A DNA stretch of 64,000 nucleotides from an uncultured Bacilli bacterium (GTDB lineage Bacteria; Bacillota_I; Bacilli_A; RFN20; CAG-826): contig CALVYH010000002.1 in assembly GCA_944372115.1 (NCBI GenBank), positions 34,898-98,897 of the forward strand. Direction: 5' to 3'. A model generated the notes under the pieces. The model was not told where the DNA came from, did no database searches, and was given only the letters and a program-made list of their open reading frames with translations. Every line of letters starts with the position of its first letter. Within the stretch, counting starts at the first letter, position 1. This document shows, one piece after another, positions 25,058-57,360 of the stretch. A program made the position numbers and the translations under genes.

Positions 25058-26569
25058 ATGGAATATATTTTATCAAGCAAAGAGATGAAGGAGGCTGATC
25101 AATATACAATTGCTTCTTATGCTTCATCTTTAGAATTAATGGAAAGAGCGGGTCGCTCAATTTTTGAATTTTTAAAAACTAATTTTTCAAAAGGTTTTTA
25201 TTATTTAATAGTTACTGGAAGTGGAAATAATGGTGGAGATGGATTTGTAGTTGCAAGATTTCTTTTAGAAAACGGCTATAAAGTCGATGTTTATGAAGCT
25301 AGTGAAGCTAAAAGTAAAGAAGCTATTGAAAATAAAAAAGCCTTTTTAAAAGAACCGATTAAAGAATTAAATATTAATAAAAATACGATTGTTATCGATG
25401 CTATTTTTGATTATGGATTAAATAAAAATATCGAAGAGCCATATTTATCTATAATTAGAAAAATTAATGAAAGTGAAAAATATAAGGTAATAAGTGTTGA
25501 TATTTCTAGTGGCATCTCTTCTTCTAATGGAAAAAAATTAAATGAAGCAATTAAAAGTGATATAACACTTGCTTTAGGTGAATATAAACTTGGTCATTTT
25601 TTAAATGATGGTAAAGATTATAATAAATTAACAATCAAACTTGATATTGGAATTGTTTTACCAAAAAAAGATTATATTAAAAGATTAGATAAAGAGGATT
25701 TTAAGGATTTATTTATAAATAGAAAAGAAAATTCTAACAAAGGAACTTATGGAAAAGTTACTTTGTTAGGAGGAATGGAAAAAACTCCTGGCGCATTGAT
25801 TTTAGCTTATAAATCATATATTTCATTAAAACTCGGTGTCGGATATAGCGAACTTGCTTTTCCTAGATCATTAAAGTTTTTATATTCTTCTTTAACTCCA
25901 GAAATAATTTATCACCCTTTAAAAGATACAAAAGATGGAAGAATTAAATTTAATAAAAAAGATTTAGAATCGATGCTAAATAGTAAAGTAATAACTATTG
26001 GGATGGGAATTGGAATTAGTAAAAACGTTTATAAAATAATTAAATATTTACTTAAAAATTATAAAAACAATTTAATTATTGATGCTGATGGGCTTAATTC
26101 TTTAGCAAAATACGGAGTTGATATTTTAAAAGAAAAAAGAGAATGTAATGTAATTTTAACTCCTCATATAAAAGAATTTTCTCGTTTATTTAAAAAAAGC
26201 GTTGATGAAATTAAAGCGACAAGAGTAAAATTCGCTAAAGAATTTTCTTATCTTTATAATGTTTATTTAGTTTTAAAAGATAATTCAACTTTAATTGTTT
26301 ATAAAAACGATGCTTATTTAAATACAAACGGAAATAGTGGACTTGCTAAAGGAGGAAGCGGGGATCTTTTAAGCGGACTTATTGCTGGAAGTGTTTCTTT
26401 AAATAATAATAAAGAAGATTTATTAAGGAAAATAGTTTTAGGAAGTTATATTTTAGGAAGAAGTGCTGATATTTTAAAACTTCATGAAAGAGTTAATGAA
26501 TTTTCGCTTATTCCTTCAGAAATTGTAACGGTTGTGAATAAAGTAATAAATGAAATAATTGGTTATTAA
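25058..26569 (+). CDS. nnr: bifunctional NAD(P)H-hydrate repair enzyme Nnr (epimerase plus ADP-dependent dehydratase)
   Basis: YjeF-N motif TGSGNNGGDGFVVAR and C-terminal GGSGDLLSGLIAG. Confidence 0.8.
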   Translation: MEYILSSKEMKEADQYTIASYASSLELMERAGRSIFEFLKTNFSKGFYYLIVTGSGNNGGDGFVVARFLLENGYKVDVYEASEAKSKEAIENKKAFLKEPIKELNINKNTIVIDAIFDYGLNKNIEEPYLSIIRKINESEKYKVISVDISSGISSSNGKKLNEAIKSDITLALGEYKLGHFLNDGKDYNKLTIKLDIGIVLPKKDYIKRLDKEDFKDLFINRKENSNKGTYGKVTLLGGMEKTPGALILAYKSYISLKLGVGYSELAFPRSLKFLYSSLTPEIIYHPLKDTKDGRIKFNKKDLESMLNSKVITIGMGIGISKNVYKIIKYLLKNYKNNLIIDADGLNSLAKYGVDILKEKRECNVILTPHIKEFSRLFKKSVDEIKATRVKFAKEFSYLYNVYLVLKDNSTLIVYKNDAYLNTNGNSGLAKGGSGDLLSGLIAGSVSLNNNKEDLLRKIVLGSYILGRSADILKLHERVNEFSLIPSEIVTVVNKVINEIIGY

Positions 26570-26605
26570 CTTTTAAAATAAAAAAATGAAGAAAGGTAAA
26601 AAATT

Positions 26606-29600
26606 ATGGGAAAAGTAGAAGAAAATAATAAAAAGAATGGGAAAGTAAGTTTTAGGCAATGGATTTTATTTATATTAATTGGATTTGCCGGTCAACTTGC
26701 TTGGAATGTTGAAAATATGTATTTAAACAAATTTATTTTCTCATTCGGAGATCAAAATTACTCTTTAATGATTACTTTAACTGTGGCAATAAGTGCGATA
26801 GTTGCTTGCTTAACAACTATTTTTATGGGTGCTTTATCTGATAAAATTGGAAAAAGAAAAATATTTATTGCTTTAGGTTATCTACTTTGGGGAATTTCTA
26901 CTGCTTCATTTGGGTTTATTAGTGTAGAAAATGTTTCTATTTTATTTCCTAGTTTAAGTGCTGCAAGTGTTGCTGCCATATTAGTCATTATTATGGATGC
27001 AATTATGACTTTTATTGGAAGCAGCGCTAACGATGCGGCTTTTAATGCTTATGTAACGGAAAATGTTGATGATAAAAATAGAGGAAAGGTTGAAGGAGTT
27101 TTATCAATTCTTCCTCTTATTGCCATGCTTGTTATATTTATTGGCTTAGATACTTTAACAACTTCAGGACATTGGGATTTATTCTTTTTTATTATCGGCG
27201 GGTTTGCTTTTATAGTTGGTATTATTTCTTTTTTCCTTATTCCAAAAGAGGAAAAAAGAAATAATATTGGTAAAAGGACTTATATAAAAACTATTGCTGA
27301 AGGATTTAGAATTAAAACTATTAAAAATAATAAAAGTTTATATATAATTTTAATTGCTTATTTAATATTTGGAATTGCTACACAAATATTTTTCCCATAT
27401 TTAATGATTTATTTCCAATACACTTTAAATTTCCAAGGATTAGATTTTATGATTTGTTTAGGTGTAGTTTTAATTCTTGGTTCGCTTTTAACTGTTTTAG
27501 CCGGAATAATGATGGATAAATTTGGAAAAAATAAACTTATTATTCCAATTATGATATTAGCTATTTTAGGTTTATTTTTAGTTTATTTTGTTAAACCTGG
27601 AGAATTAATTTTTGCAATTATTGCTGGAACTATCATGCTTTTTGGTTATATTTGTGGTGGATCAGTGTTAAATGCGATTGTAAGAGAAAAAATACCTGAA
27701 GGAGATGAAGGTATATTTATGGGAGTAAGAATGATATTTGTTGTTATGCTTCCTATGGTAAGTGGACCTTATATTGCTCAAGTTTTAGTTGATAATTTTG
27801 CGAATGGAACTTATATAGGTGATTATGGAACTCCTCAAAATTTACCTCCTGCTTTAATTTGGCTAGTTTCAGCAATTGTTTTAATATTTATTTTCGTTCC
27901 AATTTATTTTTATTTAAAAAAAGAAAAAAATGATAAAAAAAAGAAAGAAAAAGAAAACTTTGGTAAAGTTAATAATGGAATTTCTTATAAAATTGAAAAA
28001 GAAAATCATGATGAAAATTTTATTCCTTTAAAAGAACATCCAAATCCATATTTTAAGAGAAATAATTATCTTTCAATTAATGGATATTGGGATTTATATA
28101 TAGGAAAAGAAGAAAGTTTCCCTTCTTTTTATAATAAAAAAATACTCGTTCCTTATGCGATTGAATCACCTTTAAGTGAAGTTGAAGTAAATGTTTTACC
28201 TGATGATGTTATTTTTTATCATAAAGAAATAATTTTACCTTTAGAGATGTATGGCGAACATCTAATTATTAATTTTTTAGGCGTTGATCAAACTTGCGAA
28301 CTTTATGTTAATAAGATGCTTGTAATGAAAAATGAATCTGGATACAATTCTTTTTCTTATGATATTCGCCCTTTAATTAAAGAAGATAGGAAATTGGAAA
28401 TTATTTTAAAAGTAAAAGATGTTAGTGACACTTCTTACTTTTCACGTGGAAAACAATCATTAAATAGAGGTAATATTTGGTATACAACTACAAGTGGAAT
28501 TTATAAACCTGTTTATTTAGAAAGCGTATCTTCTAAGGAATATATTAAATCTTTTAATATAATTCCTGATGCAAATGAAGAAACGATTAAAGGTATTATC
28601 GAAACTAATAGTGGATATACTTGTTTATTAAAGGTTGGAGAAGAAGAATTTTTAGTCGAGCCAAATAAACCATTTTCATTAAAAATAAAAAATATTCATT
28701 ATTGGAATTTAGATGACCCATATTTATATGGTGTAAAAATTAAATATTATGACGATGAAATTTCTTCCGTTTTAGGTTTTAGAAAAATTGAAATTAAAAA
28801 GAAAAATAATAAAAACAGGTTATTTTTAAATAATAAAGAAATAATTTTAAAAGGTTTATTAGATCAAGGCTATTATTTTAAAGGAAATTTAACTCCTGAA
28901 AAGTATGAAGACTATTACGAAGAAATTAAAAAAATTAAATCCTTAGGCTTTAATACTTTAAGAAAACATATAAAACTTGAAATCCCACTCTTTTATTATT
29001 ATTGCGATAAATTAGGCGTTTTTACTATTCAAGATATCGTTAATGGCGGAAGAAGTTATGATAAATGGACTATTCAATCACCATTAATTTTAAATACTCA
29101 TAAAAAAGATATCGATAAAGATTATAAAAAATTTAAAAGAGAAGATGAAAAAGGAAGAGAAGAATATTTAACTGATTTAAACTTTACTCTTTCTTTATTA
29201 TCATCCTCCCCTTCAAATATCATAATTTGTTTATTTAATGAAGGATGGGGTCAATTTGATTCAACATTTTATTATAAATACACGAAATATATCGTTAAAA
29301 ATAATAAACTTATCGATACTGCTAGTGGATGGTATGATAATGAAAATAGTGATTTTTATAGTAAGCACGTATATTTTTTACCTATTAAAAATATAAAAAT
29401 GAAAGGTAAAAGAGCCTATTTATTAAGTGAATTTGGTGGTTATTCTCTTTATTTAAAAGATCATTTTTATGGCAAATCACCTTATGGATATAAAAAATTT
29501 AAAGGTAGTAAGTCTTTAACTAAAGCTTATGAAAGATTAATGATTTCAGTAATTAAATCATTAAAAAAAGATATGGTTGGTTTTATTTATACTCAATTAA

Positions 29601-29713
29601 GCGATGTTGAAGATGAAGTGAATGGTTTATTTACTTTTGACAGAAAAATATTAAAAATAGATGAAAACACAATTAAAAATATAAATAAAAAAGTAGATGA
29701 ATTAACAAAATAA
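26606..29713 (+). CDS. fusion protein: N-terminal 12-TM GPH/MFS-type sugar symporter (about aa 1-440) joined by a K-rich linker to a complete GH2 (beta-glucuronidase-like) glycosidase domain (about aa 470-1035)
   Basis: MFS motif A GALSDKIGKRK. GH2 sugar-binding domain HLIINFLGVDQTCELYVNKMLVMKNESGYNSF. TIM-barrel acid/base CLFNEGWGQ (NE motif) and nucleophile LLSEFGG. C-terminal NGLFTFDRK segment as in UidA. Confidence 0.75.
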   Translation: MGKVEENNKKNGKVSFRQWILFILIGFAGQLAWNVENMYLNKFIFSFGDQNYSLMITLTVAISAIVACLTTIFMGALSDKIGKRKIFIALGYLLWGISTASFGFISVENVSILFPSLSAASVAAILVIIMDAIMTFIGSSANDAAFNAYVTENVDDKNRGKVEGVLSILPLIAMLVIFIGLDTLTTSGHWDLFFFIIGGFAFIVGIISFFLIPKEEKRNNIGKRTYIKTIAEGFRIKTIKNNKSLYIILIAYLIFGIATQIFFPYLMIYFQYTLNFQGLDFMICLGVVLILGSLLTVLAGIMMDKFGKNKLIIPIMILAILGLFLVYFVKPGELIFAIIAGTIMLFGYICGGSVLNAIVREKIPEGDEGIFMGVRMIFVVMLPMVSGPYIAQVLVDNFANGTYIGDYGTPQNLPPALIWLVSAIVLIFIFVPIYFYLKKEKNDKKKKEKENFGKVNNGISYKIEKENHDENFIPLKEHPNPYFKRNNYLSINGYWDLYIGKEESFPSFYNKKILVPYAIESPLSEVEVNVLPDDVIFYHKEIILPLEMYGEHLIINFLGVDQTCELYVNKMLVMKNESGYNSFSYDIRPLIKEDRKLEIILKVKDVSDTSYFSRGKQSLNRGNIWYTTTSGIYKPVYLESVSSKEYIKSFNIIPDANEETIKGIIETNSGYTCLLKVGEEEFLVEPNKPFSLKIKNIHYWNLDDPYLYGVKIKYYDDEISSVLGFRKIEIKKKNNKNRLFLNNKEIILKGLLDQGYYFKGNLTPEKYEDYYEEIKKIKSLGFNTLRKHIKLEIPLFYYYCDKLGVFTIQDIVNGGRSYDKWTIQSPLILNTHKKDIDKDYKKFKREDEKGREEYLTDLNFTLSLLSSSPSNIIICLFNEGWGQFDSTFYYKYTKYIVKNNKLIDTASGWYDNENSDFYSKHVYFLPIKNIKMKGKRAYLLSEFGGYSLYLKDHFYGKSPYGYKKFKGSKSLTKAYERLMISVIKSLKKDMVGFIYTQLSDVEDEVNGLFTFDRKILKIDENTIKNINKKVDELTK

Positions 29714-29720
29714 ACCTATT

Positions 29721-29750
29721 GACTCTTAATACTATTAAGAGTCTTTTTTT
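29721..29750 (+). terminator. rho-independent terminator
   Basis: Stem GACTCTTAATA/TATTAAGAGTC, then T7. Confidence 0.8.
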
Positions 29751-29918
29751 CTAAAATAAACTTTATAAATGGTTAATTTTTGATATAATAATCTTCGTAT
29801 TTAGGGAGTAGCTTTTAAGTTACTATTCGACAATCACGATTTTATTGTTTATAAATCCGGATGTAACAAGATATTTCTTAGCAAGACTAAATATCAAATA
29901 ATTTTTTAGGAGAAAAAA

Positions 29919-33432: not shown

Positions 33433-34752
33433 CTAGATTTTATTAATTACACCTGAAAAAATAATGTTTTCATTACTATCTTTAATATAAAATCCGAATG
33501 TTTTATCAATTATAAAATCTTTATAGATATCTTTATATTCTATTGGACGATCACCAGTTGCTCCATCCGCTCCTATAGCTGTAACTGCAGCTCCTTCAAT
33601 TCCTTTTTTATTTACCTTTAATTTAGTTATATGAATAATAGTAGATATAAATACATTACTTTCTTTTAAGAAATCATCTTTTATAATTGATGAGAAATCT
33701 GCTAAAACTTCGTTAGTTGAATTAACAAGATTAAATCTATTTTTCATAAAATCAAGTAAATCTTCATTAAATTCACCTTCAAATTCAGGGAAAATTGTTC
33801 TAGTATGATATTTAATTTTATTTATTTCATCATAAGGATTATAACTTTCAATATTTTCAATCTCTTTAATTGTTGATTCATTAAATACTTCATCAATTGA
33901 ATATCCATCTTTTGGTTTAATAAATTGGAGGGTGTAATTTCTTCTTGTTTTAGTATAGAAAGTTTCATATTTTTCATTTTCATAAACTTGGCCTACATTA
34001 TAATAACCTTCTAAAAATTTCTTTTTACTTATTTCACCATTTTTATTTTTAAATTCAATTTCTTTGTTAAAATAAGGCAAATCATCACCGAGTTCATTCC
34101 AAATATCTTTATAATAAAGAATGTTTAATAAAACAAGCATTGTGTTTTCGCCAAAATTAAACTCGTTATTAATTAGTCCTTTAGTTTTATCTTTAACATA
34201 GTTTTGAATAGATTTATTCATTTCTTTATTTTGGTTAAAAAAATCTCCATAGTAAGAAGTTGTAAAGAAATTATCACTTAATTCTTTCAATCCTTCATCT
34301 TTAAATTCACATTTTGTATCAAGCCATAAAGAGTTAGTAAAATTAGTTACACCAAAATGATTTTCATTATTTAATAGAGAATAAAATGTAGGAATATTAT
34401 CAATTAATTCATCATATGAAGAAATATTTAAAACTTTTAATATTTCTTCTCTTGATGAATTATTTGTTGAAGCAGCTGCCATAGCTAAACCCATATACAT
34501 TGAAGCAGGGGATACAACTAAATTATCATAAGTATTTTTATAATCTTGATAAATATAAGAAGAAAATTTTGAAGCAAATGACAAAGTTGATTCTTCAAAA
34601 GTTTGATATGATTCACTATAAATATAATCGCCATCTAATTTAACTTTATCTTTGCTTTCATAAATTAAAGTTGCGACATTACTATTCATACAAGAAGTTA
34701 AAGAAAAAGGAATAATCGCAAAAGAAAATAAAAATTTAACTATATTTTTCAT
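33433..34752 (-). CDS. serpin-family protease inhibitor lipoprotein
   Basis: Signal peptide with lipobox LTSC. Serpin N-terminal helix motif NLVVSPASMYMGLAMAAASTNNSSREEIL. Hinge and reactive-centre-loop region EGAAVTAIGADGATGDRP. C-terminal F..D.PF...I-type motif FIIDKTFGFYIKDSNENIIFSGVI. Confidence 0.75.
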   Translation of the reverse strand: MKNIVKFLFSFAIIPFSLTSCMNSNVATLIYESKDKVKLDGDYIYSESYQTFEESTLSFASKFSSYIYQDYKNTYDNLVVSPASMYMGLAMAAASTNNSSREEILKVLNISSYDELIDNIPTFYSLLNNENHFGVTNFTNSLWLDTKCEFKDEGLKELSDNFFTTSYYGDFFNQNKEMNKSIQNYVKDKTKGLINNEFNFGENTMLVLLNILYYKDIWNELGDDLPYFNKEIEFKNKNGEISKKKFLEGYYNVGQVYENEKYETFYTKTRRNYTLQFIKPKDGYSIDEVFNESTIKEIENIESYNPYDEINKIKYHTRTIFPEFEGEFNEDLLDFMKNRFNLVNSTNEVLADFSSIIKDDFLKESNVFISTIIHITKLKVNKKGIEGAAVTAIGADGATGDRPIEYKDIYKDFIIDKTFGFYIKDSNENIIFSGVINKI

Positions 34753-38603: not shown

Positions 38604-38666
38604 AGGGTTTATTTTAAACTTATTTTCAATAATTGCAAACGCATTTTTATGGTATACTTTAATGGT

Positions 38667-40085
38667 ATGAACGATGATAAAAATTTAGTTAATGAAAAGG
38701 AAATAGAAGAAGTTAAAAAAGAAGAAAAAGAGCAAGTTGAAGAGATAAATATTGAAAAAGAAAATAGCAAAGACGACAAACAAAAAAAGAAAAAGAATGC
38801 CTGGAAATACTTCATATATTTACTTATTGTTTTAGTTATTACTGTAATTGTTCTTTGGATAAATCTTGTTCAACCTGTTGAAGGAGAAGAGGGAACATTA
38901 GTTTATGAAATGATTCCTTATTTTATTCAAAATATGAATTATGGTTTTTTAGCTTTATTTTTAGGAATTGTTTTATTTTCTTTCTTATTAAATGCTTTTA
39001 TGATGTTTTTATATGCTCGACTTTATCAAAGACATTATAAATATCATCAAGGTTTAGCTTCGCAAGCTTATGATATATTTTATTCTTCGATTACTCCTGG
39101 AGCATATGGAGGAGAAATTGCTAAGGTTTATTTATTTAATAAGCAGGGCGTTGGTTTATCTAATGCGGCTTCTTTAATGGTAATGAATTTTATTGTTTAT
39201 CAAACTTGCTTAATATTTGTTGGATTAGTTTCATTATGTGTTAATTTTAATCAAATTTTAGCTATTCCAGCATTCCCAATTTCTATTACAATTAACGGAA
39301 ATCCAATTCCAGATATTCCTTTTTTCATCTTTATTATATTAGGATTTCTTTTAAATCTTTTAACTATGGGATTGATTCTTTTGATGTCTTCATCAAGAGC
39401 AATTCATAATTTCGTTATTAATCATTTAATTAATTTTTTAGGAAAAATAAAATTAGTCAAAAATGTTGAAGAGAAAAAAGAAAGCGTTAGATTACAAATT
39501 GAAAATTATCGAATTGAGTTAAGAAGATTACGTTCAAATATTCCTTTTTCTATTTTAGTTTTTTCTCTTACTTTAATTTCAATTATTGTAGGGAATTTAT
39601 ATCCTTTATTAAGTGGATTAACTTTAAATGGATTTAATGGAATGGAAAACGTTAATTATTTTCAAAAAATAGTCGATTGTATTTCTTTTTCTAATTTCCA
39701 TCAAATGGTTACAGGTTTAATTCCAATTCCTGGAACAGCCGGAATAAGTGAGTATGTTTTTGATAGACTTTTTGGCGCTAATTCTTCATATTTTTCTCAA
39801 CAATTTTATAATTTAGGTGGAGCAAACTTAGTCTTGCTTTTATGGAGATTTATTACTTTCTATTTACAGTTTGCTATATGTGGAATTGTAAGTGCCACTT
39901 ATAAAACAAGAGGTGTTCCTATTGAAGATCGTCTTATACCAGTTTCAAATAGAAAGACTATTTTAACTTTGTCAATCGATACGATTGAAGATAGAAAAGA
40001 AGATCTTGAAGAGATGACAAAAGAAAAAGAAATTAAGAAAAGTAAAGAAAAAAGAGAGAAAAAAGAGGAGAAAATTAATAAATAA
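38667..40085 (+). CDS. YbhN/UPF0104 'flippase-like' integral membrane protein (MprF transmembrane-domain family) with charged K/E-rich tails. The tracked ORF starts at 38649; the internal ATG at 38667 is more likely.
   Basis: Polytopic protein with a YbhN-like segment YARLYQRHYKYHQGLASQAYDIFYSSITPGAYGGEIAKVY. Putative extended -10 TGGTATACT overlaps the upstream ATG. Confidence 0.55.
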   Translation: MNDDKNLVNEKEIEEVKKEEKEQVEEINIEKENSKDDKQKKKKNAWKYFIYLLIVLVITVIVLWINLVQPVEGEEGTLVYEMIPYFIQNMNYGFLALFLGIVLFSFLLNAFMMFLYARLYQRHYKYHQGLASQAYDIFYSSITPGAYGGEIAKVYLFNKQGVGLSNAASLMVMNFIVYQTCLIFVGLVSLCVNFNQILAIPAFPISITINGNPIPDIPFFIFIILGFLLNLLTMGLILLMSSSRAIHNFVINHLINFLGKIKLVKNVEEKKESVRLQIENYRIELRRLRSNIPFSILVFSLTLISIIVGNLYPLLSGLTLNGFNGMENVNYFQKIVDCISFSNFHQMVTGLIPIPGTAGISEYVFDRLFGANSSYFSQQFYNLGGANLVLLLWRFITFYLQFAICGIVSATYKTRGVPIEDRLIPVSNRKTILTLSIDTIEDRKEDLEEMTKEKEIKKSKEKREKKEEKINK

Positions 40086-40087
40086 AT

Positions 40088-41260
40088 ATGAATATTGCTT
40101 TATTTAGTGACACATTCTATCCAGAAGTTAATGGGGTTGCTACTTCAGTAAACTCTCTTTTTACTTTGCTTAATGAAAGAGGTCATAATTGTTATGTTAT
40201 TACAACAACTTCATCAAAATATGTAACTTATAAAGATAAAGTTATTGGAATTCCAGGAATTGAGCTTAAACAACTTTATGGTTATAGAGCTGCATTTGTT
40301 TTTAATAATGATGCCTTTAAACTTATAAAATCTTTAAATTTAGATGTTGTTCATGTAAATACCGAATTTGGGATTGGACAATTTGGTTTTATTGTTGCTA
40401 AAAAGTTAAATATTGCATCTGTTTATACATATCATACAATGTATGAAGATTATACTTATTATGCTACAAAAGGCTATTTTGATCGCTTTTCTAAATGGGC
40501 AATTAGAGAATTTGCTAGAGCATGTATGATTAGAGCAACAGAAATTATTTCTCCTTCAGCTAAAACCGAAGTTTATTTAAGAAGTATTGGATTAGAAAAA
40601 ATGATAAATATAGTTCCTACAGGTTTTGATTTTTCACGTTTTGAAGTCGATGATAAAGAAATGATTTCAAAATTGAAAAAAGAATATGGACTTGATAAAT
40701 ATGATAAAATTCTTCTTTGTTTAGGAAGAATTGCTAAAGAAAAAAGCTTTGATATTATTATCGAAGGTTATAAAGATTATTTAGATAAATATAAAGATAG
40801 TAAAATTAAAACTATTTTAATATTTGTTGGAGCAGGACCTGATGAAAATAATTTGATTAAATTAACTAAAGATTTAGGAATCGATAATAATGTTATGTTT
40901 TTAGGGAAAGTAAATTTAGAAAAAGTCCCGTATTATTATGCGATGAGTGATATCTTTTTAAATGCTTCAATTAGCGAAACTCAAGGCTTAACTTTTATGG
41001 AAGCTATGGCAGCCCATATCCCAATTTTATGTCGATACGATAATAATTTAGTAAATGTTATTAATAATAAAGTTACCGGTTTCTTTTTTGAAGATATGAT
41101 AGATTTTAAAGATAAATTAAATGAAGTTATTAATATGAAAAAAGAGGAAATAGATGAAATAGTTAAAAACGCTTATAATTCGATTTCTCAATTTTCAGAT
41201 AATACTTTTTATAACAATATAATGGAGGTATATAAACGTGCAATTAGAAAAAACTGGTAA
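40088..41260 (+). CDS. GT4-family glycosyltransferase, likely a diacylglycerol glycosyltransferase (glycolipid synthase)
   Basis: N-terminus MNIALFSDTFYPEVNGVATSV and GT-B fold motifs. Pairing with a YbhN-like protein is typical of Firmicutes glycolipid loci. Confidence 0.7.
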   Translation: MNIALFSDTFYPEVNGVATSVNSLFTLLNERGHNCYVITTTSSKYVTYKDKVIGIPGIELKQLYGYRAAFVFNNDAFKLIKSLNLDVVHVNTEFGIGQFGFIVAKKLNIASVYTYHTMYEDYTYYATKGYFDRFSKWAIREFARACMIRATEIISPSAKTEVYLRSIGLEKMINIVPTGFDFSRFEVDDKEMISKLKKEYGLDKYDKILLCLGRIAKEKSFDIIIEGYKDYLDKYKDSKIKTILIFVGAGPDENNLIKLTKDLGIDNNVMFLGKVNLEKVPYYYAMSDIFLNASISETQGLTFMEAMAAHIPILCRYDNNLVNVINNKVTGFFFEDMIDFKDKLNEVINMKKEEIDEIVKNAYNSISQFSDNTFYNNIMEVYKRAIRKNW

Positions 41261-43648: not shown

Positions 43649-45448
43649 TTAATCAAATAAATCAGGGAATTCACTTTCAAAATAATCTTTTACATCTTCA
43701 TCATAGTAATTAATGTTAGATTGTTCAAGATAATAAAGAAGTGCATTGTTAGTATAAGTTCCACCACTTGCAACAGTATAACCAATATCTCTAGCATAGC
43801 TTTCAACATTAGTTTTTTCTTCACTTGTAGAATCGCTATTTAAAGCGAGTGTATCTAACGAGACTTGATCAACGATTTCAACGATATAATAATCATCTTC
43901 GTTTTGCCATAAAATTGAGTCAACATCACTAGCGTATGTATTATTTTTTAAGAATACAGGGCCACCTTGAGTGAATTGTTTAACATAATATCCATCAACA
44001 ACATAAGATGTATCTGGATCAGTTGCTCTTTCAAATTCTGTAGCAAGACCATAAGAGAAGAGGTTAGTAATCATATTGCTTCCGCCAAGATCAAATGATG
44101 AAGATGTACCCCATTCATTTGTAACATAGGAAGAAGTTTCTAAATTTTCGATTTGAAGTGCTAAACCTTCTTCTGGAGTATATGGAATTCCATCGATAGA
44201 TGTAAATGAAGTATAAATTGTTGAATCATTAGTAGCTGGATTATTTGTTAATTCGCTATAGTTTTTAATAATATCACCATAAAGTGAGCCATTAAAATAT
44301 GGATAATCTTCGCCAGTTTTTCCATCAATATAAGAATTAAATCCGGAATTGATTTTTGTTGATTCTTCTCCATAAACGCTTGTTGCTAAAGTTTTAGCAG
44401 CTTCATTTTCACTTAATGATAATTTTTCGTGATTACCTTCCCAAGCATCAATAAGTGTTGAGAAATCAACATTTCTTTCGGTTTCATTTCTTAAGATTGT
44501 ATTGATATAACTTCTCATTAATGGTTGAGCCATTTTCGAAGAAGTATCGCTAATTTTAATGAAATTAACTTTTCTAGCTTGAGTTCTTCCAATTGATTGA
44601 TATTGTTTTTCAAAAATATAAGATTCTGTTAATAAATTTGAAAGGATATCAGGAATCATTGAAAGATTAATATAATCTACATAATGATATAAATGTAATA
44701 ATTGAGTATCTCCTTCAATAACCATTTTATAGTTATCTTCTGGATTATATTCACGTGTTACAAGTTTACCAGTTGTAAATCCTGCATCAACAAATTGTTT
44801 GTTTTCAGGTGCGTTTTCTGGATCTTTATATGTTGGTTCAGTATATAAAAGTTCTGGATCAACGCTTTTTCCGCTATTATCATAAACTGTGTAAAGTTTT
44901 TCATAGATTGATTTAGCGTATAATGATTCATAGAAACGATTATTGTTCATATAAGTAACAACAACAGCTTCATCATATAAAGTGGTAACAATTTCTTTTT
45001 GGACAAGGTCAATATAAGCTTCAATTCTAGCTTTATATTCACTAACATTTGAAGAAGATGGTTCTTCTTCAAATTCAACTGAAGTAGATGTTGAAACCCA
45101 GTTCCAATAGAATTTATGTTCTTTAACAAAGTTCATAACCGAAGTATCATCACCTAAATTTAATCCTTCAATATAAACTAAGCCATTATTATCAACTTTA
45201 TAATCTCCAATATAAGCTTTAGCGATAGCTTCAGTTAACATCTCTTTAACGCTTGTTTTATAGCTATCACCATTTTTAATGGAGTTAAAAATTTGATTAA
45301 TTTCGTTATTTTCAACGTTTACTGCATTTCCAGCTTGATCAACAACGATTGGATCTTCTGGATTTTTTAAATTAGCACTAACTTTTGAACAACCAGTAAC
45401 TAATAAAGCTGCAGATAAAAGTAATAATGTAGTCTTTGCTTTTTTCAT
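43649..45448 (-). CDS. large acidic lipoprotein with a SurA/PrsA-like N-terminal chaperone domain
   Basis: Signal peptide with lipobox LVTGC. D/E/Y/N-rich. N-terminal segment SVKEMLTEAIAKAYIGDY like the neighbouring lipoprotein. Confidence 0.5.
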   Translation of the reverse strand: MKKAKTTLLLLSAALLVTGCSKVSANLKNPEDPIVVDQAGNAVNVENNEINQIFNSIKNGDSYKTSVKEMLTEAIAKAYIGDYKVDNNGLVYIEGLNLGDDTSVMNFVKEHKFYWNWVSTSTSVEFEEEPSSSNVSEYKARIEAYIDLVQKEIVTTLYDEAVVVTYMNNNRFYESLYAKSIYEKLYTVYDNSGKSVDPELLYTEPTYKDPENAPENKQFVDAGFTTGKLVTREYNPEDNYKMVIEGDTQLLHLYHYVDYINLSMIPDILSNLLTESYIFEKQYQSIGRTQARKVNFIKISDTSSKMAQPLMRSYINTILRNETERNVDFSTLIDAWEGNHEKLSLSENEAAKTLATSVYGEESTKINSGFNSYIDGKTGEDYPYFNGSLYGDIIKNYSELTNNPATNDSTIYTSFTSIDGIPYTPEEGLALQIENLETSSYVTNEWGTSSSFDLGGSNMITNLFSYGLATEFERATDPDTSYVVDGYYVKQFTQGGPVFLKNNTYASDVDSILWQNEDDYYIVEIVDQVSLDTLALNSDSTSEEKTNVESYARDIGYTVASGGTYTNNALLYYLEQSNINYYDEDVKDYFESEFPDLFD

Positions 45449-56535: not shown

Positions 56536-56538
56536 TAA

Positions 56539-56707
56539 TTGCTTCAGGGTGTTGTGAAATTCAAAACTGGTGGTATACCCCACGAGCTAATTTATTAGCA
56601 TGAACTAGTGAAATTCTAGTGGCAACAGTAAAGTCTGGATGAAAGAAAGCATTTATATTATTTTTAAATCAACTTTTTAAAATAGCCCTTGAAGTGAAAG
56701 GGTTATT
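56539..56707 (+). ncRNA. FMN riboswitch (RFN element) with a terminator expression platform
   Basis: Matches conserved RFN blocks: AGGGTG..GTGAAATTC..ACTGGTGGTA..CCCACGAGC...AGTGAAATTC..GGCAACAGTAAAGTCTGGATGAAAGAAAGCA. P1 pairing TGCTTC/GAAAGCA. Downstream hairpin TAGCCCTT/AAGGGTTA plus T7 sequesters the AAAGGG RBS. Confidence 0.85.
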
Positions 56708-56712
56708 TTTTT

Positions 56713-57360
56713 ATGAAAATTAAAAAATCTTTACTTCTAATTGCTCGTGTTGCTATTTTTGGAGCTTTAGCCATAATTCTTTATATGGTGCCCGGTTTAC
56801 AATTTCCTATTTTTCCAGGTTTAACGTTTTTAAAAATACATTTTGATGAAATCCCGGTTTTATTTGCTTCCCTTGCTTATGGGCCTTTAACTGGGAGTTT
56901 AATTATTTTTTTAAAGGGAATATTTAAACTTATTCAAGATATTGGTGAAACAGGAGGAATCGGAGTAATAGCAGATATAATTTATGGTCTTGCTTTTATA
57001 CTCCCTGCTGCTTTTATTTATAAATATCATAAAGGTTTTAAAATGGGTTTAGTTGCAATATTTGTTGGAATGCTAGTTAATTTAATATTTAGTGCATTTA
57101 TTGGATATTATCTTATTTATCCTTTATATGGTTTTTATTTTAATCCAAGTGCTAGTAATTATAATGAAGCGATGGAAACAGTCTTTACACTTTTTAAAGC
57201 AGCCGATTCTTCTTTAACTTCTTGGAAAGATCCAAAAATATTATTTGAATTTCTTCTTCCATTTAACTTAATTAAAAACGCCGTAATTGTGGTATTTACT
57301 ATTTTGGTTTATAAGCCATTATCTTTACTTGTTAAAAAAGAAGAAAATAAAGAAAAATAA
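56713..57360 (+). CDS. ribU: ECF transporter S component, probably the riboflavin transporter RibU
   Basis: 215-aa, 6-TM ECF S-component-like protein directly downstream of the FMN riboswitch. Confidence 0.7.
   Translation: MKIKKSLLLIARVAIFGALAIILYMVPGLQFPIFPGLTFLKIHFDEIPVLFASLAYGPLTGSLIIFLKGIFKLIQDIGETGGIGVIADIIYGLAFILPAAFIYKYHKGFKMGLVAIFVGMLVNLIFSAFIGYYLIYPLYGFYFNPSASNYNEAMETVFTLFKAADSSLTSWKDPKILFEFLLPFNLIKNAVIVVFTILVYKPLSLLVKKEENKEK

Follow-up and report, generated by a model that had tools for sequence, protein, structure and literature searches.

What does a membrane transporter carry, and what does its enzyme cleave, when the two are made as one polypeptide? The question is raised by an open reading frame (ORF) at 26606..29713 (+) of a 64,000-nucleotide stretch of DNA from an uncultured Bacilli bacterium (contig CALVYH010000002.1, positions 34,898 to 98,897), which is called the window here. 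The ORF starts with ATG and encodes 1035 amino acids plus a stop codon, with no internal stops. It is not a chance ORF, given its length in DNA of 28% GC (approximately 21–32% locally) and the hundreds of homologous proteins that match it at E = 0. The N-terminal part is a transporter of the major facilitator superfamily (MFS), and the C-terminal part is an enzyme of glycoside hydrolase family 2 (GH2). An initial annotation, made from the DNA letters, read the pair as a glucuronide permease joined to a β-glucuronidase. We arrive at another substrate. The protein is probably a cation-coupled importer of galactofuranosides tethered to a cytoplasmic exo-furanosidase that would release galactose.

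The C-terminal 575 aa were used to search the sequences of the Protein Data Bank (PDB). The best match was 7sf2, a 588-aa GH2 protein from B. cellulosilyticus (BACCELL_01794, uncharacterized), to which aa 475–1030 aligned end to end in phmmer (E 2.4e-79, 270 bits). It was followed by 9j6n/9j6m, the β-D-galactofuranosidase ORF1110 of Streptomyces sp. JHA19 (E 5e-60, 207 bits), and by 7xyr, annotated as a B. thetaiotaomicron β-glucuronidase (E 1.6e-40, 142 bits). Every other GH2 structure scored 50 bits or less. The best true glucuronidase or galactosidase was found at E ~1e-12, LacZ-type structures at E 1e-8 or weaker, and the E. coli GUS structure at E 5.7e-6. In Foldseek, the template-modeling score (TM-score) of our model was 0.88 to 7sf2 (580 columns), 0.87 to 9j6m, 0.80 to 7xyr, and at most 0.72 to the rest. 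When CAZy subdivided GH2 in 2025, 9J6M (GH2_18) and 7XYR (GH2_19) were assigned to group III, the sole part of the family with furanosidase activities; six galactofuranosidases and two arabinofuranosidases have been characterized there, and the group is marked by replacement of the stacking Trp of the −1 subsite by Thr (PMC12243196). By its similarity to these two structures 7SF2 would also fall in group III, and the GH2 half of the fusion belongs to the same group. Around 80% of GH2_18 proteins are secreted and around 10% of those in GH2_19 (PMC12243196), so that the cytoplasmic location predicted below would fit GH2_19 better than GH2_18.

The GH2 half has the domain architecture of the family. 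It begins with the sugar-binding jelly-roll (aa 476–641; 28031..28528 (+)), which contains a Pfam Glyco_hydro_2_N match at aa 534–638 (E 3.6e-14) and residues D561, D605, K616, Q617, and Y626. The Ig-like middle domain (aa 642–755; 28529..28870 (+)) has a weak Glyco_hydro_2 match at 679–726, is all-beta in the model, and aligns to 7sf2 and 9j6m. The TIM-barrel catalytic domain (aa 756–1035; 28871..29710 (+)) includes the invariant H788. No match of the query sequence to Pfam Glyco_hydro_2_C (PF02836) was obtained at E ≤ 0.1, though homologues do match. The barrel is nevertheless real, as seen from the 7sf2 alignment, the superposition of the AlphaFold model, and the presence of PF02836 in homologues. 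Beyond the membrane region, the AlphaFold model is all-beta from aa 488 to 753 and alternates beta and alpha elements from aa 768 to 1034. The NE motif N878-E879 (29237..29242 (+)) aligns to N463-E464 of ORF1110, with E879 as the predicted acid/base, and E942 (29429..29431 (+)), the predicted nucleophile, aligns to E530. Both glutamates are invariant in 36 of 36 homologues, and the enzyme is complete, as the initial annotation had proposed.

The structure of the β-D-galactofuranosidase (EC 3.2.1.146) ORF1110 with an inhibitor defines its catalytic residues (E464 and E530), its ligands to galactofuranose (Galf; K212, Y228, H401, N463, Y551, and E594), and a Mg site (D157, D201, and Q213; PMC11627007). 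We mapped these residues by HMMER and 36-sequence alignments. E464, E530, K212, Y228, H401, and N463 correspond to E879, E942, K616, Y626, H788, and N878; Y551, E594, D157, D201, and Q213 correspond to Y962, E1004, D561, D605, and Q617. With the exception of Y962, all of these catalytic, Galf-contact, and Mg-site residues are invariant in the 36 homologues. The four ligands of the exocyclic O5/O6 diol of Galf (K212, Y228, Y551, and E594 in ORF1110) are all kept in the query. Close to the C-terminus lies the furanosidase signature Y995-T996...D1000-V-E1002-D-E1004-V-N1006-G1007 (29588..29626 (+)), in which Thr replaces the Trp that stacks on pyranoses and E1004 is the counterpart of the O5/O6 ligand E594. 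T996 is invariant and aligns to T586 of ORF1110.

The transporter half (aa 1–437; 26606..27916 (+)) has the 12 transmembrane (TM) helices, the motif A, and the profile match of an MFS protein. Pfam MFS_1 matches aa 54–388 (E 7.5e-37, 127.5 bits against a cutoff of 33.4), and MFS_2 matches aa 171–380 only and far more weakly (E 3e-13, 49.5 bits against a cutoff of 27). Motif A, GALSDKIGKRK, lies in the TM2–TM3 loop (26828..26860 (+)), with G75 and D79 invariant in 63 sequences; its second-half equivalent, GIMMDKFGKNK, lies in the TM8–TM9 loop (27503..27535 (+)), with G300 and D304 at least 90% conserved. The full-length AlphaFold model, built on a 36-sequence alignment (pLDDT 84.4), has 12 long helices, of which the first spans aa 16–45 and the last aa 417–451. 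A model of the MFS half by itself also has 12 helices (pLDDT 89.5, pTM 0.87). The hydropathy profile has no hydrophobic segment beyond aa 437. Lys and Arg residues are clustered in the N-terminus, in the loops after TM2, TM6, TM8, and TM10, and in the linker (11 Lys/Arg), and the alternate loops have none. This pattern and the 12 helices correspond to the standard MFS topology with both termini inside, so that the GH2 half is predicted to be cytoplasmic. The Lys-rich, cytoplasmic linker (aa 438–475, 38 aa; 27917..28030 (+)) is entered by the TM12 helix, which runs on to aa 451 in the model. Linkers are 25–40 aa long in all fused homologues. Of what the initial annotation had said about this half, the 12-TM MFS transporter stands, and the placement of GH2 on the cytoplasmic face is supported as a prediction.

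The MFS half is a bona fide but divergent MFS clade and can be called no more than a candidate member of the glycoside-pentoside-hexuronide:cation symporter family (GPH, TC 2.A.2). Foldseek with the MFS-only model gave 381 MFS-type matches at E ≤ 1e-3 with TM-scores of approximately 0.7. The top match was MelB (E 9e-9), with NorA, VMAT2, SLC37A4, and LmrP within 3-fold and so statistically equivalent; these matches are generic to the MFS and point to no subfamily. A sequence search of the PDB with the MFS domain returned no match at E ≤ 0.01. Across 63 fused and split relatives, the membrane-embedded residues E36, N37, and N41 (TM1) and D131, N142, D143, and N147 (TM4) are at least 90% conserved and are plausible candidates for binding of sugar or cation.

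The same two proteins also occur unfused. An exhaustive HMMER search with the MFS domain gave 900 representatives, 179 of them at E ≤ 1e-30, and among these relatives fusions of ~1000 aa are mixed with stand-alone proteins of ~440 aa, which NCBI labels only 'MFS transporter'. All six stand-alone relatives with enough flanking sequence have a gene for a group-III-like GH2 protein (560–620 aa) immediately downstream. In such split pairs, for example in a low-GC Bacilli-like metagenome contig, Micromonospora aurantiaca, and Eggerthella sp. YY7918, the GH2 start overlaps the MFS stop by 4–17 nt in another frame. The initial annotation had called for a survey of fused against split genes. Among 80 species-representative genome loci, MFS and GH2 are adjacent in 38, and a stop-to-stop frame check divided these into 20 fused (one ORF) and 18 split. 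Fused forms are found in Bacilli, Christensenellaceae, Lachnospiraceae, Oscillospiraceae, Erysipelotrichaceae, and other Clostridia, and split forms in other Bacillota, in Sphaerochaetaceae and Treponemataceae (Spirochaetota), and also in Actinomycetota. Because the same MFS and GH2 partners recur as adjacent, translationally coupled genes, a functional link between the two halves, already suggested in the initial annotation, is strongly backed.

In rough neighbor-joining trees, the split forms are basal for the MFS half, and for the GH2 half the fused forms are interspersed with split and unlinked ones, which suggests repeated fusion, fission, or loss; these trees are indicative only. At loci with a GH2 relative (~40% identity) and no adjacent MFS gene, no related MFS gene was found within 8 kb, and in the rough tree the unlinked GH2 relatives do not form a clade apart from the linked ones. 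An Oscillospiraceae metagenome-assembled genome (locus L006, 3181–3330) has the MFS and GH2 genes in the same frame, with one TGA and a 27-nt spacer with AAAGGAGG before the ATG; this pair is one point mutation short of fusion. Among the MFS relatives examined, the most distant one (P0182, 30% identity; L092, 1–1581) has no GH2 gene after it. On its upstream side, and overlapping it by 4 nt, lies an ORF of 526 aa or more that belongs to no Pfam family; its product may be another enzyme with which this MFS clade is paired.

The genes around the module were clustered (991 ORFs from 83 loci). There is no conserved operon: generic ABC exporters aside, no family occurs in more than five loci, and those that do recur have housekeeping roles (DnaX, PPIase, TadA, sigma factor, MATE, LepA, Mfd, and Pth). 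A targeted search found galK within 8 kb of the module at 4 of the 38 species-level loci, in four different arrangements and once together with galT. Around 0.25 loci would be expected by chance. The Poisson probability is ~1.5e-4 as computed with n = 40 and λ = 0.256; with the correct n = 38, λ is ~0.243, and a similar result is expected. In Eggerthella sp. YY7918 (L088, 6001–11753; AP012211) the genes for the MFS protein (449 aa), the GH2 protein (622 aa), GalK, and GalT follow one another, overlapping or abutting. One actinobacterial split pair lies behind a LacI-family regulator gene. In the subset of neighbors that was annotated, no genes of arabinose or uronate catabolism were seen.

Two further clusters were observed next to split pairs. 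The Eggerthella operon has upstream of it a gene for a protein of 670 aa that contains Fn3_assoc and CHB_HEX_C_1 domains and may bind or degrade glycans at the cell surface. Directly upstream of the Micromonospora aurantiaca pair (L086, 1–5646) is a cluster with GASH, DO-GTPase1/2, GAP1-N1, and EAD1 domains, which looks like a conflict or defense system.

As we picture its action, the MFS domain would import a small glycoside or oligosaccharide with a furanose at its non-reducing end, most likely β-D-galactofuranose, and import would probably be coupled to a cation. The linker of ~38 residues would prolong the last TM helix into the cytoplasm and hold the GH2 half at the inner face of the membrane. 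There, the group-III retaining exo-furanosidase would cut off the furanose with E879 as acid/base and E942 as nucleophile, and the freed galactose would go back to its pyranose form and enter the Leloir pathway (GalK and GalT). Fusion would fix the ratio of the two activities at 1:1 and keep the enzyme at the exit of the transporter.

A number of points weigh against this picture. The MFS domain is without a characterized close relative, and it is thus by inference that we assign the direction of transport, the coupling ion, and the exact substrate. A physical hand-over between the domains is conjecture as well. For the MFS-linked members of the family the assignment is one by sequence and model, and the closest structure, 7sf2, is itself uncharacterized. 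Group III also holds α-L-arabinofuranosidases, and the determinants of Galf or arabinofuranose (Araf) specificity are unsettled (PMC12243196). The counterpart of Y551, Y962, is Tyr in the query and in 20 of the 36 sequences, but His in 15 and Gln in one. The pTM of the full-length AlphaFold model is only 0.67. Finally, sugar-catabolic neighbors are absent around the fused gene in the window and at most loci.

A bolder form of the proposal, to which we would give only a modest chance, is that the MFS and GH2 proteins, fused or as coupled partners, form a physical machine. The furanosidase site would cap the transporter exit and cleave the substrate as it emerges, a 'vectorial hydrolysis' akin in spirit to group translocation. 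The transporters would then be a new MFS family of galactofuranoside:cation symporters and, with their enzymes, the first dedicated uptake route for microbial and fungal Galf-glycans in gut Firmicutes and Actinobacteria.

The alternative that survives best keeps the importer–hydrolase logic and changes the sugar: the substrates would be α-L-arabinofuranosides (arabino-oligosaccharides) and the GH2 half an arabinofuranosidase. Two of the eight characterized group-III enzymes have this activity, the C6 hydroxymethyl group is all that distinguishes Galf from Araf, and many of the hosts are gut or rumen bacteria that degrade plant fiber. However, the residues that bind O6, which is specific to Galf (K212, Y228, and E594 in ORF1110), are invariant in this family, and the recurrent catabolic neighbor is galK/galT, with no arabinose genes in the annotated subset. 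Going by sequence, we regard the arabinofuranoside substrate as unlikely.

Slightly less probable still is a unit of the LacY/LacZ type for β-D-galactopyranosides, with an ordinary β-galactosidase as the GH2 half. The association with galK and galT is compatible with any galactoside, and the PDB entry 7sf2 has the title 'Beta-Galactosidase', although this is a deposition title only and the FEBS paper calls the protein putative. Against it, the Trp that stacks on pyranoses is Thr here, as throughout group III, and every Galf ligand is kept; moreover, the characterized galactopyranosidases belong to other GH2 groups, and the LacZ-type matches given above are weak.

The genes near the fusion in the window bear on a third alternative, in which the cell would retrieve and trim its own Galf-containing envelope glycoconjugates or glycolipids, in the manner of AmpG/NagZ with muropeptides or LplT-Aas with lysophospholipids. 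The neighbors in the window are asnA, an NAD(P)HX repair gene, and genes for a P-type Ca-ATPase, a GNAT protein, and a serpin. These housekeeping surroundings, without a regulator or catabolic operon in the window and at most loci, would suit such recycling. So would a pair of genes 9 kb downstream, at 38649–41260 (+), the first for a membrane protein of the LPG_synthase_TM family (478 aa) and the second, immediately after it, for a GT4 glycosyltransferase (390 aa). They may be a glycolipid-synthesis pair, and they are also kept at the locus of a 70%-identical relative (L001). AmpG and LtaA are among the Foldseek matches of the MFS half, but not distinguishably so, as its fold matches are generic. 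The galK/galT operons and the LacI-family regulator gene at some loci point to catabolism instead, and there is no sign that the hosts make Galf, although no search for glf was made beyond the window. We consider self-recycling improbable.

The glucuronide reading of the initial annotation, a UidB-like permease fused to a UidA-like β-glucuronidase, has very little probability left. Its homology is weak: UidA aligns by BLASTP with the N-terminal sandwich only (261 residues, 18% identity, E 7e-12), UidB has 24% identity to the MFS half across 178 aa (E 8e-7), and partial NCBIfam matches fall far under their cutoffs (β-glucuronidase, 55 bits against 544; the GPH profile TIGR00792, 41.5 bits against 231). 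The structures of the furanosidase clade are matched better by around 70 orders of magnitude. In UidA, N566 and K568 form the N-x-K motif that binds the glucuronate carboxylate. Anchoring the alignment on G(I/L)FT(R/F)DRK places the furanosidase signature at the position of this motif, with N566-K-K568 replaced by E1004-V-N1006 and W549 by T996. The defining GUS motif is therefore absent, and E1004 would put a carboxylate-repelling Glu at the carboxylate site. Uronate-catabolism genes were likewise unseen among the annotated neighbors. Every motif quoted in the initial annotation is present, namely GALSDKIGKRK (aa 75–85), KKEKNDKKKKEKEN (aa 438–451), LFNEGWGQ (aa 876–883), LSEFGG (aa 940–945), and FTFDRK (aa 1009–1014), but two of them do not carry the meaning given to them. 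FTFDRK, taken as a UidA-like C-terminus, is a general GH2 motif, and motif A, taken as a mark of GPH transporters, occurs MFS-wide. The activity would probably be missed in the proposed assays with p-nitrophenyl (pNP) glucuronide and pNP-galactoside, the latter read as the galactopyranoside.

The fusion itself is widely shared. The identical 1035-aa protein is found on 13 separately assembled contigs that stem from different assemblies and different runs. Fusion, with other linker sequences, is also seen in relatives at 86%, 75%, and 70% identity, and the 70% relative shares the syntenic position (PFOR ... asnA, nnr, fusion, Ca-ATPase). At least 120 homologue clusters span both halves with query coverage of 85–100%, down to 37% identity; the best 120 are ~980–1060 aa long, with two shorter (892 and 981 aa), one of them partial. 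The cultured Acetatifactor muris DSM 23669 has a fused ORF as well, confirmed by Pfam. That two adjacent genes were merged by an indel in the A-rich linker, as its homopolymer runs and the split relatives that differ by a frameshift might suggest, is rejected with near certainty because of the 13 contigs, the fused relatives with other linkers, and the many fused clusters, the cultured strain included; the in-frame fusion without an intervening stop was thus read correctly from the start. The runs A7, A7, and A8 at 27917–27960 (+) are hot spots for indels and slippage, with the frame intact on all 13 contigs, and slippage at them could toggle the gene between fused and split forms.

The fused gene has its own signals. 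A Shine–Dalgarno-like GAAAGG was read directly at 26591..26596 (+), with the ATG 9 nt further on, and a 36-nt gap separates the ORF from the end of the nnr-like gene at 26569. A terminator-like hairpin with a 10-bp stem and a T-run lies at 29721..29753 (+), 8 nt past the stop codon; the scanned region holds four such sites, where 1.0 would be expected. Elsewhere in the window, the serpin ORF (439 aa, 33433–34752 (−)), 0.7 kb downstream of the Ca-ATPase gene, has a full-length Pfam Serpin match (E 9.8e-35) and represents a bacterial serpin from a Bacilli-like genome of low GC. A 599-aa ORF at 43649–45448 (−) has no Pfam match at E ≤ 1e-5. A full-length FMN riboswitch (RF00050, 91 bits) at 56536–56655 (+) lies just upstream of an ORF at 56713–57360, whose product presumably transports riboflavin or takes part in its biosynthesis.

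Mammals lack galactofuranose, a common constituent of the O-antigens and exopolysaccharides of bacteria and of the galactomannan of fungi. To our knowledge, the only Galf uptake system known is an ABC transporter for the free sugar. If our assignment is right, the cassette would be an unrecognized intracellular route by which commensals feed on the glycans of other microbes; the GH2 galactofuranosidases discussed in the work cited above are mostly secreted. Its hosts include many Bacillota of gut and rumen as well as Eggerthella and Micromonospora, and around half of the sampled species have it in fused form. The fusion would serve as a 'Rosetta stone' by which an anonymous clade of MFS transporters acquires a probable class of substrate, and it offers a compact, single-polypeptide system for probing the mechanistic coupling of transporter and enzyme. 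Cultured hosts exist for both forms, Acetatifactor muris DSM 23669 for the fused one and Eggerthella sp. YY7918, with galK and galT, for the split one.

The initial annotation knew of no characterized example of this architecture, and we found no report of an MFS–GH2 fusion, of another transporter–glycoside hydrolase fusion, or of this cassette in a literature whose coverage was incomplete. The GH2 subfamily paper filtered out proteins with TM domains for its analysis of secretion signals and says nothing about the MFS, about transporters, or about membrane domains (PMC12243196). Public databases already contain the MFS–GH2 sequences, with names that convey little about them.

Among known systems, the enzyme half is closest to ORF1110 of Streptomyces (GH2_18; 9J6M/9J6N) and to 7SF2. 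They share its three-domain GH2 fold (TM-score 0.87–0.88) and its pair of catalytic glutamates, and ORF1110 also has the Galf-contact and Mg-site residues and the group-III exchange of Trp for Thr in common with it. Foldseek identity to them is 25–29%. However, 7SF2 is a single GH2 unit of ~590 aa, ORF1110 is a secreted protein with a CBM42-like AbfB domain at its C-terminus, and neither has a membrane domain, whereas the GH2 half described here is joined to a transporter and has a predicted location in the cytoplasm. The E. coli ABC importer YtfQRT-YjfF, which takes up free galactofuranose, is dedicated to a furanose form of galactose, as we propose for the present protein. It transports the monosaccharide and has no linked hydrolase; the present protein is an MFS transporter predicted to take glycosides.

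The joining of a transporter to a cytoplasmic domain has precedents. LplT-Aas is an MFS lysophospholipid transporter fused in many bacteria to an acyltransferase/acyl-ACP synthetase, and LacS is a GPH carrier with a C-terminal IIA domain. In both, the C-terminal cytoplasmic domain acts on the transported substrate or regulates its handling, and fused and split forms occur depending on the taxon. Neither contains a glycoside hydrolase, and we claim no sequence relationship. The logic is that of LacY/LacZ and UidB/UidA in E. coli, in which a secondary-active permease and a cytoplasmic GH2 enzyme are encoded by adjacent genes, and the overlap of uidA and uidB resembles that of the split MFS and GH2 genes. 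In lac and uid, however, the genes are separate and the enzyme comes first, the reverse of the order seen here; their enzymes belong to GH2 group I rather than group III, and the relationship of UidB to the MFS half is remote (24% identity in 178 aa). The sequences themselves are already public, and the new part is the fused variant of the LacY/LacZ logic.

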